From sequence record PQ374922.1: DNA of 64,000 bases. The stretch is one strand, 5' to 3'. Positions 33,922 through 63,221 of this stretch are shown piece after piece. Each line of letters opens with the position of its first letter. Position 1 is the first letter of the stretch. The notes under the pieces are model-generated. The model did not search any database. It was not told the origin of the DNA and saw only the letters and a program-made list of their open reading frames with translations. The DNA is from a phage. The translations under genes were made by a program, and so were the position numbers.

Positions 33922-34123
33922 ATTTTAAATTTATTCAATAAACGGGGTTTAATTCTTCAATAAACCCCGTATACTTCATTCCATAAGCAGCACAACACTG
34001 ACTCTGAAATGAAGGGACTATCACCAATCTCGTTACAAAGTAACATTGCAGCAATTTGTTCTAAACCTTTGAACAGGGTATGTTAACCGCATACCCTATC
34101 CCCTACAAATAGAGGACTTTACC

Positions 34124-37565: not shown

Positions 37566-38312
37566 ATGGCATCCCTCCAAGATCTACGCAAGCTGAACGA
37601 CTTCGAAAACCGTCATTACACATTCCAGCAATACGAACTTCCTTACAAGGAACTGGAGTGTGTTACGACGGAGAATGGTCGTCATTACGTTTCACCGTCT
37701 GGTGTAAAACTGACATCCGTCACGACTATGCTGGGACGCACTGGAGATCATGAATGGCTTGAGTCTTGGAGGAAGAAGCTGGGCGCAGAGGCCGCTGACC
37801 TTGAGACCATGCGCTGTGCTGACCGAGGGGAGAAGCTGCACCTTGCGTGTGAACTGTATCTAAAGAACCGCCCAATGAAAGAAGTGTTGGAAGCGGCTGG
37901 CGAATACATGTTCATGTTCAAGCAGCTGTTCCCTTACCTGAACAAGATGACAAAGATCTATGCTCAGGAGATCCCATTATATAGCGAGGTGCTTGGTCTT
38001 GCAGGTCGTGTAGACCTTATCGGGGTTTATGAGGGTAAACCTGCTGTCATCGACTTCAAGACATCGAACACCATGAAGACGCGGGGCATGATCGAGGATT
38101 ACAGTATCCAGCTATGCTTATATTCGGTCATGTTCCAGCAGATGTTCGGCGTCAAGATCACCCGCCTCATCAACGTGATCGCCAACGAGTCTTCCCCTCT
38201 ACCAACCGTCATTGAGTTCAACCGTGATGACATTCTGACAAAGATGTTTGAGCGTGTTCGTCTGTATCATCGCATGGATAAAGAACAAAACGGAGTCTGG
38301 CCGGATCACTAA
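37566..38312 (+). CDS. PD-(D/E)xK superfamily nuclease (exonuclease-like)
   Basis: Motifs GRVDLIGVY (Asp) and PAVIDFKTS (D-x-K) in beta-strand context. Confidence 0.55.
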   Translation: MASLQDLRKLNDFENRHYTFQQYELPYKELECVTTENGRHYVSPSGVKLTSVTTMLGRTGDHEWLESWRKKLGAEAADLETMRCADRGEKLHLACELYLKNRPMKEVLEAAGEYMFMFKQLFPYLNKMTKIYAQEIPLYSEVLGLAGRVDLIGVYEGKPAVIDFKTSNTMKTRGMIEDYSIQLCLYSVMFQQMFGVKITRLINVIANESSPLPTVIEFNRDDILTKMFERVRLYHRMDKEQNGVWPDH

Positions 38313-38340: not shown

Positions 38341-39849
38341 ATGGTAGACATTCAGATTGTTAAGGTTAACGAAGTCCGCATGCGTTGCATCGCAGATCTT
38401 TCTATCAGGGAAGAACTTAATGACTACTTCAAATTCGAAGACCCGAACTTCGTTCCCAACCCCTTTTCTAAATGGGACGGGGTTGTCCGCCTATTTACCA
38501 AGTCATCTGGTCTAATCGATATCGGTCTGCTGTTTGAGGTATTTAAGTTCTGTAAGAACAACGGATACACCATTGAACTGGATCCGGCACTGAAGTACAT
38601 TCAGGACATCCCAGATGAAGAAATCCGTGACTTCATCGACAGTCTGCATCCAAAGATCCGCACCGAAAATCACGAATATATCGATGCCGAGACTCGTGAC
38701 TACCAGTACGACACCATCGCCAAGGCTATGCGTCAAACCAGATGCGTCTGTGAACTGGCTACGAGTGCCGGTAAGTCCTTTATTCTGTATGTCATGGCGC
38801 GGTACTACAGGCGGCGCAGAGAAGCTCTCGAAAGTCCTCTGAAGACGCTTATCGTGGTGCCGTCAATCCACCTAGTCACTCAGCTGTACGACAACTTCGA
38901 AGAGTATGCACATGGCAGTGATTGGAAGCCCGTTGTTAACACCCAGCTGATTTTTGAGGGCGCGACAAAGGATATCAGCAAACCAATCGTCATCAGTACA
39001 TGGCAAGGCATTCAAGACCAGCCGAAGGAATGGTTCCACCAGTTCGGTGATATCGTGGTGGATGAAGTGCACACCTCCAAGTCTGAGAAACTGTCTTACA
39101 TCCTAAACAACTGCATCTATGCCGACCAGCGCCTGGGGGTTACAGGTACGCTGGCGAATACCAAAGTTGCCGGGCTTCAGGTGGTGGCTCACTTCGGGGC
39201 GTACCATAAGATCATCACGGCTCGCGATCTTATCAATCTCGGGTACGCCACTGACATCAAAGTGAAGATGATCCAGCTGAAGCACACTCCGGCGGATGCT
39301 GTTGGTCTGGACGGGGATTATTCCAAGGAAATAGAATACCTTATCACACACCAGTCCCGCAACGAACTGATCGCCAAGATGGCACTGAATCTGAAAGGAA
39401 ACGTGGCCATCATGTTCGAACGTATTGATGGTCACATGATGGTCGTGTATGATATGCTGAGCGCGGTCAAGCCCAACGTGTTTGTCATCAACGGGGAAGT
39501 AAAGATCGAAGACCGCCGCCGCATACAGAAAGCGATGGAGGATGGAGAGGACATCACCCTGTTGGCATCATACGGGACAATGCAGCAGGGAGTGTCGATC
39601 AAGAAGCTACACCACCTTGTACTGGCACACCCGAGCAAGTCATATATCCGCGTCATACAGACATTGGGTCGTCTGATGCGTCAGCACTCCTCTAAGGACG
39701 TCGCGTGGATATGGGACTTAGTGGATGATGCATCGTACAACGCCAGCACGAACCACGCTCTTAGGCACTCTCACGAGCGTTACAAGTTTTACCTGGCAGA
39801 GCGCCACCCTGTGGAGTTCATGAAGGTGGCGCTGGGTAATCACGATTAA
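38341..39849 (+). CDS. uvsW: UvsW-like SF2 DNA/RNA helicase
   Basis: Walker A ELATSAGKS, DEVH box, VISTWQGIQDQPKEWFHQFG, C-terminal LASYGTMQQGVSIKKLHHLVLAHPSKS all matching the T4 UvsW pattern. Confidence 0.9.
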   Translation: MVDIQIVKVNEVRMRCIADLSIREELNDYFKFEDPNFVPNPFSKWDGVVRLFTKSSGLIDIGLLFEVFKFCKNNGYTIELDPALKYIQDIPDEEIRDFIDSLHPKIRTENHEYIDAETRDYQYDTIAKAMRQTRCVCELATSAGKSFILYVMARYYRRRREALESPLKTLIVVPSIHLVTQLYDNFEEYAHGSDWKPVVNTQLIFEGATKDISKPIVISTWQGIQDQPKEWFHQFGDIVVDEVHTSKSEKLSYILNNCIYADQRLGVTGTLANTKVAGLQVVAHFGAYHKIITARDLINLGYATDIKVKMIQLKHTPADAVGLDGDYSKEIEYLITHQSRNELIAKMALNLKGNVAIMFERIDGHMMVVYDMLSAVKPNVFVINGEVKIEDRRRIQKAMEDGEDITLLASYGTMQQGVSIKKLHHLVLAHPSKSYIRVIQTLGRLMRQHSSKDVAWIWDLVDDASYNASTNHALRHSHERYKFYLAERHPVEFMKVALGNHD

Positions 39850-40217
39850 TCTTGATTCACATAGGCGGGGGTGGCCTCGCCTTCATCAGTTACTACACCG
39901 AACAATTTGTCCAGAGAAGCCAGACATTGTGCGTTCAGGTGTTCACTGATCGTATCCTTCAGCATTTGTTCGCTGTTCAATTGGAATGGCAGAACCTTCG
40001 CTTCGATGCCGTTATCAAACGTCACAACGCCAACATACAGACCAACTTTCAGGCCTGTCATCAAGCCAAGGGGGACAAATCGCGGCTCCGATGGTAAGTT
40101 CTTGTCTGACGCCAGCTGTGTCAGATAAACTGGGGTGCCTGTGATAAATTGACCTGTGGTGAGGTTGGCGTCTGGCTTACTACACCCGACTGCGTATAAT
40201 CCTACGAACTGTTTCAT
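39846..40217 (-). CDS. Hypothetical protein (123 aa), possibly exported or lipid-anchored
   Basis: Minus strand, convergent with uvsW; N-terminus MKQFVGLYAVGCSK is weakly signal or lipobox-like. Confidence 0.45.
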   Translation of the reverse strand: MKQFVGLYAVGCSKPDANLTTGQFITGTPVYLTQLASDKNLPSEPRFVPLGLMTGLKVGLYVGVVTFDNGIEAKVLPFQLNSEQMLKDTISEHLNAQCLASLDKLFGVVTDEGEATPAYVNQD

Positions 40218-40404
40218 ATATTACTCTCGTGTGTTGGTTAACATGACATACATATTATTTCGCGTGCATGTTTAGACCAAATAAATTATTTTTGTTGTTG
40301 AATAAAAACTGCTTTCTTGTTGAACAATGGCGTGGTATTATACGAGTTGTGAGCGTTAGCGAACAACGAGTATTTGTTTTATGAGCGAAGCGAATAGGAT
40401 TAAT

Positions 40405-40445
40405 AAAAGTTATTATCTTTAATAAGGTTATTATCTTTAATAAAG
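40405..40445. repeat. Tandem duplication of an 18-nt AT-rich unit (gttattatctttaataag, two copies) in a 360-bp AT-rich intergenic region
   Basis: Direct tandem copies followed by palindrome aaatgccgaaggcattt; region 40218-40577 separates divergent genes. Confidence 0.5.
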
Positions 40446-40577
40446 TCCATAAATGCCGAAGGCATTTATTAATAACGCGTAGCGCAATTTGCCACTTGTT
40501 CTATAAGCAAAACACAGCGATACTAGATTTCGTCAAACATGACTTGAACCACCACTATATTTTGAGGATACATACAA

Positions 40578-41246
40578 ATGCAAGAGATCACTCTCTCCGA
40601 ACGTACACTTCAGTTGCTGGCCAACTTTGAGACCATCAACCCATCTATCGTTCTGACACCGGGCAAGATGCTGCGCAGTATTAATGATTCTTCTACTGTG
40701 ATCGCCGTGGCGCAGATCGAAGAAGACTTCCCGTTTGAGTTCCCGATTCTGGACCTGACCAAACTTCTGGCCATCCAGCGCCTACCTTCCTTCAAAGGTG
40801 CCAAAGCCGAATTCCATCAGGACTACATCCTGTTGAAAGGTGAAAGTTCTCAGCTGCAATTCTGGCGTTCTGCTAAAGAACTCACGGTTGTCCCGGCTGA
40901 TACTATCGAACTGCCGTCTGTTGACTTTGAAGCGATCATCACTCCAGAGAAGATGAAAGAACTGACCCGCGCCTGTTCTACCCTCGGACATAAGACTGTG
41001 CGCCTGGTTGCTCAGGGTGGCAAAACTCGCCTGGTTGCAACCACCACTACCCTGGACAACTCCAACAACTACACTGTTGAGCTGGGTGAAACCGCGCTGC
41101 CGGACTTCGTAATGCCGCTGGATGTTGCCAACCTGAAAATGATCGAAGGCAACTACACTCTGCGTGCCTGTGCTGATCTACAGATGGTGAACTTCCAATC
41201 ATCCGACGCGACGATCAATTACTTCGTCGGCGCACAGATTGAGTAA
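40578..41246 (+). CDS. Sliding clamp, gp45-like
   Basis: N-terminal TLQLLANFETINPSIVL matches T4 gp45 TTALLKNFATINSGIML; RBS gagga; optimal-codon-rich. Confidence 0.9.
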   Translation: MQEITLSERTLQLLANFETINPSIVLTPGKMLRSINDSSTVIAVAQIEEDFPFEFPILDLTKLLAIQRLPSFKGAKAEFHQDYILLKGESSQLQFWRSAKELTVVPADTIELPSVDFEAIITPEKMKELTRACSTLGHKTVRLVAQGGKTRLVATTTTLDNSNNYTVELGETALPDFVMPLDVANLKMIEGNYTLRACADLQMVNFQSSDATINYFVGAQIE

Positions 41247-47593: not shown

Positions 47594-47965
47594 ATGTTTG
47601 ATAAAGCAACCCGTATGAAACTGCGCTTCGAGTCTAACAAAGGTCTGCTGTCTGTTGAGCAGGTCTGGGACCTGAGCCTGACTGCCCTGAACGAAATGGC
47701 GAAAGGTCTGAGCCGTCAGGTGAAAGCAGCAGAAACCGATGAAGAAGATTTCATTGGTACCAAAAGCAACGTTGACTCCGAACTGCAGCTGCGCTTCGAC
47801 GTTGTCAAGCACATCATCGGCGTTAAGCTGAAAGAACGTGACGACAGCAGAGAAGCGGCAGAGCGTAAGGCGAACAACCAGGTTATCCTGGAGCTGATCC
47901 AGCGTAAGAAACAGCAAGAGCTGGAAAGCAAATCTGTTGAAGAACTGGAAGCGCTGCTGAAATAA
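47594..47965 (+). CDS. Hypothetical protein (123 aa)
   Basis: RBS gaggata; charged helical-looking protein. Confidence 0.5.
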   Translation: MFDKATRMKLRFESNKGLLSVEQVWDLSLTALNEMAKGLSRQVKAAETDEEDFIGTKSNVDSELQLRFDVVKHIIGVKLKERDDSREAAERKANNQVILELIQRKKQQELESKSVEELEALLK

Positions 47966-47985
47966 CCCTGTTGGCCTCGGCCTGA

Positions 47986-48014
47986 GCAACCCCGCCATGT
48001 GCGGGGTTTCTTTT
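47986..48014 (+). terminator. Rho-independent terminator (aaccccgccatgtgcggggtttctttt)
   Basis: GC stem plus T-tract after stop at 47965. Confidence 0.65.
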
Positions 48015-48025
48015 GGACAAAGAAT

Positions 48026-48436
48026 ATGAAACTTGTCATCTGTGATTACTGCGGCCTCCTAGCCGAATTCGTCGGTGGTGATGTTCTCTACCCTCATCGC
48101 CCTGACCTCCGCAATCTGAAGTTCTGGGTTTGTACCCCATGTGATGCCCGTGTCGGTTGCCATGCCCATGGCGACGGCAGACAACCTCTGGGAAGGATGG
48201 CGAATGCCGCTCTCCGTGCCGAGAAGCAAAAAGCCCATAGATCGTTTGACCCATTATGGAAAGGCGGAGAGAGGAGCAGGAGCGACGCTTACAGTTGGCT
48301 GGCGCATAAGCTGGGGATAAAGAAGCGTGAGTGTCATATTGGCTTGTTCGATATCGACATGTGCCGTAAAGTAGTTGTTGTCTGTCAACAATACGAGGCA
48401 CATATCAATGTCAAAGGAAATACAAGAAGCGTTTGA
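48026..48436 (+). CDS. Zinc-ribbon hypothetical protein (136 aa)
   Basis: CDYC...CTPC cysteine pairs; ORF track begins upstream at 47999. Confidence 0.5.
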   Translation: MKLVICDYCGLLAEFVGGDVLYPHRPDLRNLKFWVCTPCDARVGCHAHGDGRQPLGRMANAALRAEKQKAHRSFDPLWKGGERSRSDAYSWLAHKLGIKKRECHIGLFDIDMCRKVVVVCQQYEAHINVKGNTRSV

Positions 48437-61884: not shown

Positions 61885-62648
61885 TAACCCGCAACGAAGG
61901 ACAGATGGCACTTGACATTCGGTTCCAACGACGTCACAGAAACCGTCATATTGTCCGTATCTTGGCTGAAGTCAATGGTGGCGAGAGGTTTGGTCTGAAT
62001 ATGGTTGTATACACTGTAGATCAGATCCTCGCCACGATACCCTACCTTCCCGTCTGTGTCTTGCCAATGACCCAGTGTCTCATCGTAGACATGCACTCTG
62101 AACTCGATCATATGGAAGAGTGCCTTGGGGATGTCCTTGAGTACGCTGGTGCCAACCACGGGAATCTCTATGCTGGAATCATTAGAGTTCCCTTCATAGA
62201 CCGAAGCCCATGCAAAGGTAGGATCACCCCCAGCAACAGGGGTTCGCTTCCAGTATTGGAATTCTGGGTTGCCTGAAGCGTTCTTCTGAAGTAGAATGAC
62301 CTCACCACCTTTGAAGTTCGAGGTATCGATGTCGCCTCGCTGAAGTTCATCTGCTGGAGATCCAATAAATTTCCAGCCTTCGCGATCCAGTAAAGACTTA
62401 TAATAGTCGGTGAACACGTTGCTGTCTTCTGCATCGTTGATGGCATCTTTGAGACCTTGGCCTGTCACCATCTCGTTGAGCTTCAACCACATGTTCTTGA
62501 CAGCAGAAGCTGCTGCGACTTGTCCAGCAGTCCCACCTGCAGCATAATCATAGATGATATCTTCTGACTTGATAGCATCATAGATAGAGAGGAGCAATTG
62601 CTCAATCTGCGGGGCGGTGAGACTGAAACGATATGCGCGGGGTGCCAT
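61881..62648 (-). CDS. Hypothetical protein (256 aa) divergent from the RNase H gene
   Basis: Strong RBS (agaggaa) before minus-strand ATG 62648; stop overlaps the DinG-like stop; product unrecognised. Confidence 0.5.
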   Translation of the reverse strand: MAPRAYRFSLTAPQIEQLLLSIYDAIKSEDIIYDYAAGGTAGQVAAASAVKNMWLKLNEMVTGQGLKDAINDAEDSNVFTDYYKSLLDREGWKFIGSPADELQRGDIDTSNFKGGEVILLQKNASGNPEFQYWKRTPVAGGDPTFAWASVYEGNSNDSSIEIPVVGTSVLKDIPKALFHMIEFRVHVYDETLGHWQDTDGKVGYRGEDLIYSVYNHIQTKPLATIDFSQDTDNMTVSVTSLEPNVKCHLSFVAGY

Positions 62649-62693
62649 AGTTTCATTCCTCTTTCTATAAAACCAGTTTGGGATATTTATATC

Positions 62694-63221
62694 ATGATAG
62701 AAATTTATTCTGACGGGGGTTCTAACCCGAAGACCAACCAGGCCGCAGGCTGGGCATTTGTCATCAGGCCAATAACGGGTATGCAATGGAAGGTGTTCTT
62801 CGGTCATCTACCTCCCCCGTCCACTAACAATATCGCCGAGTTGTTGGGTGTGACCAACGCATTGAAGCTACTGTGGGCATTCTCAGGAAAGGGTGAGCGC
62901 AGAATACCAAAGGCAACAATTTGGTCTGACAGCCAATATGCCATCAAGAGTGTCACCGAATGGCGAACGAAGTGGGAGTATCAGGGTTTCCCAGAAAAGA
63001 ACGTTGAACTCATCAAAGATCTGTTCAGAATCTATGATCTCGTTTGTTCAATTTGTGATGTTGAACTAAAATGGGTTAAGGGTCATGCGGGACACGAAGG
63101 CAACGAACTTGCCGATGACTGGGCTACAGCAGCCAAAAACGACAGCAACTTCCTGATTGAGAATGACAAGATCTCGGTGAAGAAGGTTGTTGGATCTTTT
63201 GATGAATTTATCGGTATCTGA
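62694..63221 (+). CDS. rnh: Ribonuclease H (RNase HI family)
   Basis: MIEIYSDGGS...WAFVI; IWSDSQYAI; KWVKGHAGHEGNELADDWA catalytic motifs. Confidence 0.8.
   Translation: MIEIYSDGGSNPKTNQAAGWAFVIRPITGMQWKVFFGHLPPPSTNNIAELLGVTNALKLLWAFSGKGERRIPKATIWSDSQYAIKSVTEWRTKWEYQGFPEKNVELIKDLFRIYDLVCSICDVELKWVKGHAGHEGNELADDWATAAKNDSNFLIENDKISVKKVVGSFDEFIGI

Follow-up and report, generated by a model that had tools for sequence, protein, structure and literature searches.

Conserved paired hairpins behind a candidate promoter recur at three loci in the genomes of Ackermannviridae phages

The putL and putR processive antitermination RNAs of phage HK022 are paired stem-loops that lie just downstream of dedicated promoters and form paralogous cis elements. 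In phage T4, the origins oriF (uvsY) and oriG (gene 34) are composed of a promoter plus an A+T-rich tract, and lie near points of transcription divergence and skew shift (PMC3016281). The complementary-strand origins of phages G4, St-1 and alpha3 and the plasmid ssi signals carry strand-specific hairpins of the type GCGNAGC/GCGNNAGC (PMC13037366). Here we have analysed 64,000 nucleotides of a phage genome (sequence record PQ374922.1; this whole stretch is called the window below), and describe, in the spacer upstream of the gp45 sliding clamp gene, a unit in which two plus-strand hairpins, HP1 and HP2, follow a candidate promoter, P1, and which recurs at two other loci in related genomes. As in the put elements, the two hairpins exist as paralogs after a dedicated promoter and before terminator-like hairpins, in a terminator-rich genome; unlike put, the unit shows no similarity to the put sequences, its hairpins are spaced by 5–15 nt or by a 45-nt inserted domain, and at gp45 the predicted start lies inside HP1. 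As in oriF and oriG, the unit is approximately 100–150 bp long and combines an A+T tract with a candidate promoter that has a normal TAnnnT –10 and a –35 that is not of the sigma-70 type (PMC3016281). The apexes of HP1 (GCGTTAGC, the St-1 and alpha3 sequence) and HP2 (GCGAAGC) match the 'extraordinarily stable' DNA mini-hairpins of the primase-dependent origins of G4, St-1 and alpha3 (PMC13037366). The locus is also like an ordinary divergent sigma-70 region in having two back-to-back candidate promoters with conserved hexamers and variable spacers, and a TATTATA that reads as a –10 on both strands; unlike a plain promoter region, it contains about 60 nt of covarying hairpins, recurs at two other loci, and is conserved above coding sequence.

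The window comes from a phage of the Ackermannviridae (Aglimvirinae), and across 1.8 kb around the spacer it is 98.8% identical to Escherichia phage YX22 and 87–98% identical to other Aglimvirinae (Ag3, AV101, EspM4VN and the Dickeya LIMEstone-like phages). An earlier note on the same DNA had drawn attention to a 360-bp A+T-rich spacer between a minus-strand gene and gp45. This spacer (40218–40577) is real, and it turns out to be the longest true intergenic stretch in the central window; its A+T content is 67.2%, compared with 51.5% for the window, and the A+T-richest 100-nt segments of the whole 64 kb fall inside it. Small open reading frames (ORFs) in the spacer, one of which is annotated as a coding sequence in phage Mooltan, were ruled out as genes because close relatives differ by 1-nt indels inside them, and thus the spacer holds no hidden ORF. 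Searching with the 360-bp spacer alone by blastn retrieved 273 phage records across Agtrevirus, Limestonevirus, Kuttervirus and Taipeivirus, all of them Ackermannviridae except two that bear Enterococcus or Pseudomonas phage names, with identities down to 70% in Klebsiella and Serratia Taipeiviruses; Erwinia phage phiEa2809 also retains the hairpin core. The spacer is 86% identical to that of phage Vi01 over aligned positions, whereas the value for gp45 is 76% over the whole gene and 51% at its third codon positions; for phage Menlow, the corresponding values are 79% for the spacer, and 75% and 47.5% for gp45. These comparisons show the spacer to be more conserved than the synonymous sites of its flanking genes; outside the repeat described below, it is under strong purifying selection. 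We regard it as a compact control region with strong conservation, and not as a repeat array.

Conservation within the spacer was assessed block by block, as identity over ten clade representatives. Apart from promoters, the most conserved blocks are the two hairpins HP1 and HP2 (Table 1), both of which RNAalifold recovers from the alignment alone. The earlier note recorded the repeat and the palindrome of this spacer correctly, but missed its main feature, namely these two deeply conserved hairpins, which lie to the left of the repeat and belong to a family of three loci. HP1 has an RNA folding energy of –12.3 kcal/mol and consists of three helices parted by two tandem G·A/A·G mismatches, with the 'mini-hairpin DNA' motif at its apex. 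The top of HP1 and HP2 share the module YGAGC-loop-GCGAR, in which a Watson–Crick stem is followed by a tandem G·A/A·G, by G-C and C-G pairs and by a variable loop. The candidate promoter P1, at the head of the unit, has a conservation pattern of the promoter type, since CTTTCTTGTTGAAC (96%) and the –10 (87%) are more conserved than the rest of the spacer between them (61%).

The pairing of both hairpins is maintained by compensatory change. Among 13 sequences, 96% of the cells in the pairing table are standard pairs, compared with 15–52% when the partners are slid against each other, and three pairs have changed on both sides. When orthologs, paralogs and newly found relatives are taken together, all of the 12 pairs of HP1 are standard without exception; both partners of a pair have changed in the outer stem (A-U/C-G and A-U/U-A) and at the apex (C-G/U-A), and phiEa2809 HP1 has one additional inserted G-C pair. 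In HP2, the pair beside the G·A tandem alternates between U-A and C-G among clades. The loops vary, being GTTA, TTT, GTCA or ATTCAT in HP1 and GAA, GTA, GATA, TTCA or an 18-nt extra helix in HP2, and the HP1–HP2 distance varies between 29 and 36 nt. Only the plus strand has U·G variants and G·A tandems, whereas the opposite strand would give A·C and C·T mismatches. This strand specificity, the variable loops and the variable HP1–HP2 distance speak for a single strand folded on itself, and against a duplex operator or other duplex protein site.

The whole genome of Vi01 was scanned for the hairpin pattern and then compared with itself by local BLAST. The pattern scan detected a third HP2-like hairpin, upstream of gp5, and a 49-nt, 96% identical repeat joins this gp5 locus to the spacer upstream of gp6; the Vi01 units are located at 92.4, 133.8 and 47.9 kb. 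The recurring unit starts with a promoter-like block and continues with hairpins, an A+T-rich tract and finally a GC hairpin. The shared head of all three loci (an A-tract, CTTT(T)CT, 17 nt and TAnnnT) is found, with its A-tract, nowhere else in Vi01. At the gp6 locus, HP1 is complete (TTC-GA-GTTGT-GA-GT-GTTA-AC-GA-ACAAC-GA-GAA) and is accompanied by an inserted structured domain, an HP2 with an 18-nt helix as its loop, and a short A+T tract; this locus also shares the CGCGCGAGAG block that follows the linker in spacers upstream of gp45. With a covariance model built for HP1, one copy is recovered from the window (67 bits) and two from Vi01. Within any one clade, the gp45 and gp5 loci have the same HP2 sequence. 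The version at gp6 has a folding energy of –60.8 kcal/mol (z = –2.9), a stability that none of 200 shuffled sequences reached, and its domain contains further helices with G·U pairs and compensatory variation; a long-range helix that closes the gp6-locus RNA was not reproduced for the gp45 unit.

Kutter-, Taipei- and Agtre-like genomes all carry the family, at the same three syntenic loci. Among them is an IMG/VR contig (L028, L181), in which the gp45-locus linker is identical to that of YX22, the phage closest to the window. No match to the element was found in 5,426 E. coli genomes, and no such hairpins were found around gp45 in 80 distant T4-like metagenome loci. The synteny in all genera and the lack of an E. 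coli match rule out a miniature transposable (MITE), REP, mobile or host-derived element. Rfam covariance models and ARAGORN (for tRNA and tmRNA) gave no match at gathering score in the window, and only chance-level matches (E > 0.4) at the three loci. As far as we have found, this family of a promoter followed by a double hairpin is undescribed in Rfam, in annotation and in the literature.

The palindrome reported in the earlier note (aaatgccgaaggcattt) is likewise real, and is the core of a third, 21-nt hairpin, HP3, that lies between the A+T-rich linker and the gp45 promoter region. The HP3 stem is identical in Agtrevirus, Limestonevirus and Kuttervirus, with loops GAA or GTCA; in Taipeivirus it is replaced by an unrelated A+T hairpin, and phiEa2809 has none. 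Its folding energy is –8.2 kcal/mol and only three of its nine base pairs are G-C. HP3 was rejected as an intrinsic terminator on the plus strand, where the tail TAATAACG has no U-tract and the terminator scan flags the minus strand only. It was also dropped as a T4-type late promoter (CATAAATG), since the late motif of this phage appears to be CTAAATA (see below).

The reading that we favour, at about an even chance, is that the HP1/HP2 unit is a transcribed structured RNA or leader. P1 would start rightward transcription of the unit between P(-)1 and P2, the candidate promoters of the two flanking genes, giving a structured RNA of about 110–130 nt at the gp45 locus and about 150 nt at gp6; passage of RNA polymerase beyond HP3 would give a long gp45 leader instead of a discrete RNA. 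The conserved YGAGC...GCGAR modules would be the recognition sites for a trans-acting factor; this might be an RNA-binding protein of the phage or the host, or else RNA polymerase, as happens in antitermination of the HK022 put type. A small transcription unit is the simplest reading because a dedicated promoter, conserved hairpins of the sense strand, an A+U tract and a GC hairpin all lie before the downstream gene's own promoter, which is the CTAAATA late motif at gp6 and P2 at gp45.

Several points weigh against a transcribed RNA. At the gp45 locus, the –10 of P1 overlaps the 5' arm of HP1, and consequently the covarying outer stem of HP1 cannot form in a P1 transcript that starts at around 40348; this stem needs either an RNA that starts further upstream (for example, terminator-less late UvsW transcripts) or single-stranded DNA. 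The –35 of P1 (TTTCTT) is far from the sigma-70 consensus. The 3' end of a small RNA would be uncertain, because HP3 has no plus-strand U-tract and is not conserved in Taipeivirus and phiEa2809. Covariation cannot separate RNA from non-template DNA, because the two have identical sequence, and both apex sequences, GCGTTAGC and GCGAAGC, belong to the classic mini-hairpin motifs of DNA (PMC13037366). A usable Ackermannviridae transcript map or small-RNA report was not found in the literature searched.

More tentatively, HP1 and HP2 might represent a new family of cis-acting phage elements, with three copies in each genome of the enterobacterial Ackermannviridae, that acts either as a put-like RNA or as part of an R-loop origin. 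Put-like antitermination is a concrete possibility because there are around 40 intergenic terminators, including one after gp45. Ag3 has 40 intergenic terminators, and the strong terminator between gp45 and gp44 is Torf165 of the Ag3 Table S2.

An R-loop origin of replication like T4 oriF and oriG, an origin being among the suggestions of the earlier note, is the main alternative to a transcribed RNA, though in our estimation an unlikely one. The primer RNA from P1 would stay hybridised in the A+T tract, and the three units would be three origins; HP1 and HP2 would form on the displaced non-template (plus) DNA strand, stabilise the bubble, and perhaps mark a priming or helicase-loading site. 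The likeness of P1, with its odd –35, followed by the A+T-richest spot of the 64 kb, to the T4 arrangement is one of sequence only. The locus lies within the replication module, with UvsW on one side and gp45, gp44 and gp62 on the other, and, as for oriF and oriG, there are several units per genome amid T4-type replication genes including UvsW, one of which, the gp6 copy, is located at a divergence and skew-shift point, the minimum of the cumulative GC skew in Vi01 and a switch in gene orientation (PMC3016281). At the gp45 locus, however, the genes diverge locally but GC skew shows no inflection, and skew extremes are ambiguous as signs of an origin because they coincide with switches in the direction of transcription. 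Moreover, the A+T tract measures only 18–25 nt at the gp6 and gp5 loci. T4 origins have no common sequence motif or hairpins, whereas the present units are clear paralogs with conserved hairpins. Nor is there a MotA box at the right distance as in oriF and oriG; a MotA-box middle promoter was rejected, because the TGCTTTC-like block lies 19 nt, and not 11–13 nt, from the –10, and TGCTT is not conserved in other clades.

The hairpin apexes bear on the same question. A DNA hairpin would account for the overlap of the HP1 outer stem with the –10, and the match of the window apexes to primase-dependent origins also favours replication. An apex of the GCGNAGC/GCGNNAGC type is present in the window, phiEa2809 and L192, but the mini-hairpin is not kept in all clades, being GCTTTGC in HP1 of Kuttervirus and Taipeivirus, GTGTTAAC in HP1 of Ag3, and GCAAAGC in HP2 of EP75. 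Unlike the situation in G4, St-1, alpha3 and ssi, it is the G·A tandem below the apex that is conserved here, and not the mini-hairpin itself; in addition, those hairpins act on single-stranded DNA, whereas the present genome is double-stranded. The gp6-locus domain, with its many G·U pairs, resembles RNA.

Two further alternatives are each improbable, although parts of the data fit them. In the first, the symmetric –10 TATTATA would serve both P1 and a leftward promoter, P(-)2, located inside HP1, and the direction of transcription would depend on whether HP1 is extruded, as a cruciform or a hairpin, or bound by a protein. P(-)2 fits the promoter class of the phage very well (TTGTTC-18-TATAAT in Agtrevirus, TTGCTC-17-TATATT in Kuttervirus and TTGCTC-17-TATAGT in Taipeivirus), TAnnnT is retained in both readings of the –10 in nearly all clades, and the outer stem of HP1 covaries with the –10 sequence. 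However, HP1 of the gp6 locus has TTGTTC, but a –10 is missing from the opposite strand, phiEa2809 is without a good leftward promoter, and a DNA switch leaves unexplained both HP2, which recurs at three loci, and the conserved G·A tandems, which are C·T/T·C mismatches on the other strand.

The second, which we consider no more probable than such a switch, starts from the late UvsW mRNA, which would run antisense through the 123-aa gene, so that HP1–HP3 would be 3'-end, stability or RNase processing structures that shield the gp45 promoters. In its favour, UvsW and the 123-aa gene overlap tail to tail with no hairpin between them, a late motif precedes UvsW, a read-through RNA would include the complete HP1, and HP3 is the first stable plus-strand stem-loop downstream of UvsW. 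On the other hand, the promoter-like block at the head of all three units is left unexplained, HP3 is poor in a plus-strand U-tract, and read-through cannot reach the gp6 copy because this copy lies between divergent genes.

There remains the tandem repeat in the A+T-rich linker. Tandem Repeats Finder reports an array at 40400–40446 with a period of 18, 2.6 copies and a score of 78, the top score in the window. The two-copy repeat of the earlier note is therefore real, with full copies at 40409–40426 and 40427–40444, one base further along than the note had placed it. Among ten aligned close relatives, there is one copy in AV101, fGh-Ecl02, Ag3, EspM4VN, SW16-7, CAU_YEP3 and Ds25CZ, whereas YX22 and the window have two copies and A221 has three; relatives that are >97% identical thus differ in copy number (1, 2 or 3). 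Of 17 loci with this type of linker, 11 have one copy, four (including the window) have two, one has three and one has none. The 18-nt motif has no second site in the 64 kb, even when four mismatches are allowed, and Kuttervirus, Taipeivirus, four uncultured relatives and phiEa2809 have unrelated A+T-rich sequence at the repeat position. These alignments show the repeat to be a recent, lineage-specific duplication in what appears to be an unconstrained linker.

Independent tandem duplications are found in the linker after HP2 in IME250 (8 nt, TATTTGAG twice) and phiEa2809 (11 nt, CTTAATTTAAG/T twice), and the A+T-rich linker is, as far as such duplications reveal, a recurrent hotspot of slippage. 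The variable copy number, the lack of a second site, the unrelated sequence elsewhere and the low cross-clade identity argue for a slippage-prone, length-tolerant tract rather than a binding array, and the repeat would affect linker length only. Thus, although each 18-nt unit holds the inverted repeat TTATTA-N4-TAATAA, the proposal of the earlier note that the repeats are a binding array for a regulator (an iteron-like or operator array, bound by a regulator or the HU-like protein) is scarcely credible, as most relatives have a single copy, near-identical phages have from one to three, other genera are without the unit, the repeat lies at a single site in the least constrained block of the spacer, and evenly spaced copies conserved in number and sequence among relatives, as expected of iterons, are not seen. 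ToxI-like antitoxin repeats were ruled out by the 18-nt unit, the 1–3 copies, the absence of a toxin gene and the lack of an Rfam match. The tandem repeat is a neutral length polymorphism, and at most a strain marker.

The gene order around the spacer is UvsW-like helicase, 123-aa gene, spacer, gp45 clamp, gp44, gp62 and a RegA homolog. The UvsW-like gene (plus strand) and the 123-aa gene (minus strand) are arranged tail to tail, and their stop codons overlap by 4 nt (39838–39857), with no terminator between them. Given this convergent overlap, transcription of the two genes must either collide or read through, and late transcription of UvsW would yield RNA antisense to the 123-aa gene. Substitutions in the 123-aa ORF fall mostly at third codon positions (7/5/32 at the three positions against Ds25CZ, and 17/7/48 in another comparison between relatives); because of this bias and the match to PHROG 4255, the ORF is, on comparative grounds, a real gene. 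A lipid anchor for its product, which the earlier note had thought possible, does not hold up, since Cys12, the basis of that guess, is present only in the Agtre/Limestone clade; a structure model of the protein gave weak, generic fold matches only. In Escherichia phage A221, which has three repeat copies, the annotated length of the 123-aa gene's ortholog is just 216 nt (L002, 545–760), and this may reflect a frameshift or an annotation difference. Elsewhere in the window, an RNase H homolog (62598–63221, plus strand) has the C-terminus ...GSFDEFIGI, the Vi01 equivalent being GSFNEFIGI, and this is another possible clamp-binding tail.

The window was scanned for promoters of the form TTG(T/G)TC-N16-18-(T/G)AnnnT. 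The scan returned 15 sites, compared with approximately six expected by chance, and seven or eight of them lie directly upstream of genes; taken together, TTG(T/G)TC-N16-18-TAnnnT sites are probably the early or host-type promoter consensus of the phage. Two of the sites flank the present unit. The hexamers of P2 are both 100% conserved, around a spacer that is 67% conserved, and the –35 block and –10 of P(-)1 are 98% and 85% conserved, with 70% for the spacer. In both P2 and P(-)1, conserved hexamers lie 16–18 bp apart around a variable spacer, as in sigma-70-type promoters, and this is the signature of promoters; for the promoters of the control region overall, P1 included, hexamers are 85–100% and spacers 61–70% conserved. 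We infer that the 123-aa gene is transcribed from P(-)1, and gp45 from P2. The divergent promoter hub proposed in the earlier note is borne out to this extent, that the flanking genes both point away from the spacer and each has a candidate promoter of the phage's own class. In the published Ag3 list of promoters and terminators, this spacer does not appear. A second spacer of the window, at 33922–34123, is also unusually conserved (95% identity with Vi01 over aligned positions); it contains a terminator (AACGGGGTTTAATTCTTCAATAAACCCCGT) followed by a TTGTTC-17-TATGTT promoter, the –35 context of which, TTGTTCTAAAC, matches that of P(-)1.

The motif CTAAATA is found 25–45 nt upstream of the start codons of nine plus-strand genes, including UvsW, where it stands at 38309. 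It looks like the late-promoter consensus of this family, in contrast to that of T4 (TATAAATA), which occurs once in the window. No CTAAATA is found inside 40218–40577, and gp45 therefore looks pre-late.

Table 1. Coordinates of the features discussed (positions in the window unless Vi01 is named)
Feature	Position	Strand	Basis and details
Candidate promoter P1 of the non-coding unit	40303..40341	+	A-tract TAAAAAC 40303–40309, CTTTCTT 40312–40318, 17-nt spacer, TATTAT 40336–40341
HP1 hairpin	40340..40373	+	ATAC-GA-GTTGT-GA-GC-GTTA-GC-GA-ACAAC-GA-GTAT; RNAalifold
HP2 hairpin	40379..40397	+	TTAT-GA-GC-GAA-GC-GA-ATAG; apex GCGAAGC; 88% conserved
A+T-rich linker with tandem repeat	40398..40448		82% A+T; 34% cross-clade identity, least conserved block of the spacer
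HP3 hairpin (palindrome)	40449..40469		ATAAATGCC-GAA-GGCATTTAT; 9-bp stem, 3-nt loop
Paralogous units, outside the window	Vi01 133.7–133.96 kb (gp6; L171 13700–13960, – strand); 47800–48035 (gp5; L169)		Upstream of baseplate genes gp6 and gp5
Possible leftward promoter P(-)2	TTGTTC 40366–40361, 18 nt, TATAAT	–	TATTATA of P1 read on the minus strand; promoter scan
Candidate promoter P(-)1 of the 123-aa gene	40252..40280	–	TTGGTC 40280–40275, 17 nt, TAATAT 40257–40252
Candidate promoter P2 of gp45	40496..40524	+	TTGTTC 40496–40501, 17 nt, GATACT 40519–40524
gp45 translation initiation region	40553..40580	+	Invariant CACTATATTTTGAGGATA; Shine–Dalgarno GAGGA 40564–40568; ATG 40578; 97.5% conserved
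gp45 sliding clamp gene	40578..41246	+	Annotation in relatives; weak Pfam gp45-slide_C match
123-aa conserved hypothetical protein gene, Ackermannviridae only	39846..40217	–	Matches PHROG 4255
UvsW-like helicase gene	38341..39849	+	Pfam UvsW_N/ResIII/DEAD/Helicase_C; annotation in relatives
Gene-proximal candidate promoters of the TTG(T/G)TC class	31141, 34056, 40496, 44137, 48344, 59368 (+); 40280 (–)	+/–	Sequence scan
(c/g)aCTAAATAcc sites	3064, 6440, 11636, 18147, 22430, 25238, 28791, 35112, 38309	+	Sequence motif

Ackermannviridae (ViI, CBA120, Ag3 and LIMEstone-like phages) are widely used as candidates for biocontrol and therapy, and to our knowledge their transcription and replication signals are known from consensus guesses only. 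The present analysis makes several such signals testable, namely a working TTG(T/G)TC-N17-TAnnnT promoter consensus, CTAAATA as the likely late motif, a second promoter class of odd type, and a conserved structured element in three copies that may be a regulatory RNA, an antitermination signal or an origin. If the element is put-like, it would allow RNA polymerase to read through many intergenic terminators, such as that between gp45 and gp44. If instead it belongs to an origin, it would combine a primer with a displaced-strand structure, and these loci would be the first sequence-defined R-loop origins outside T4 itself.

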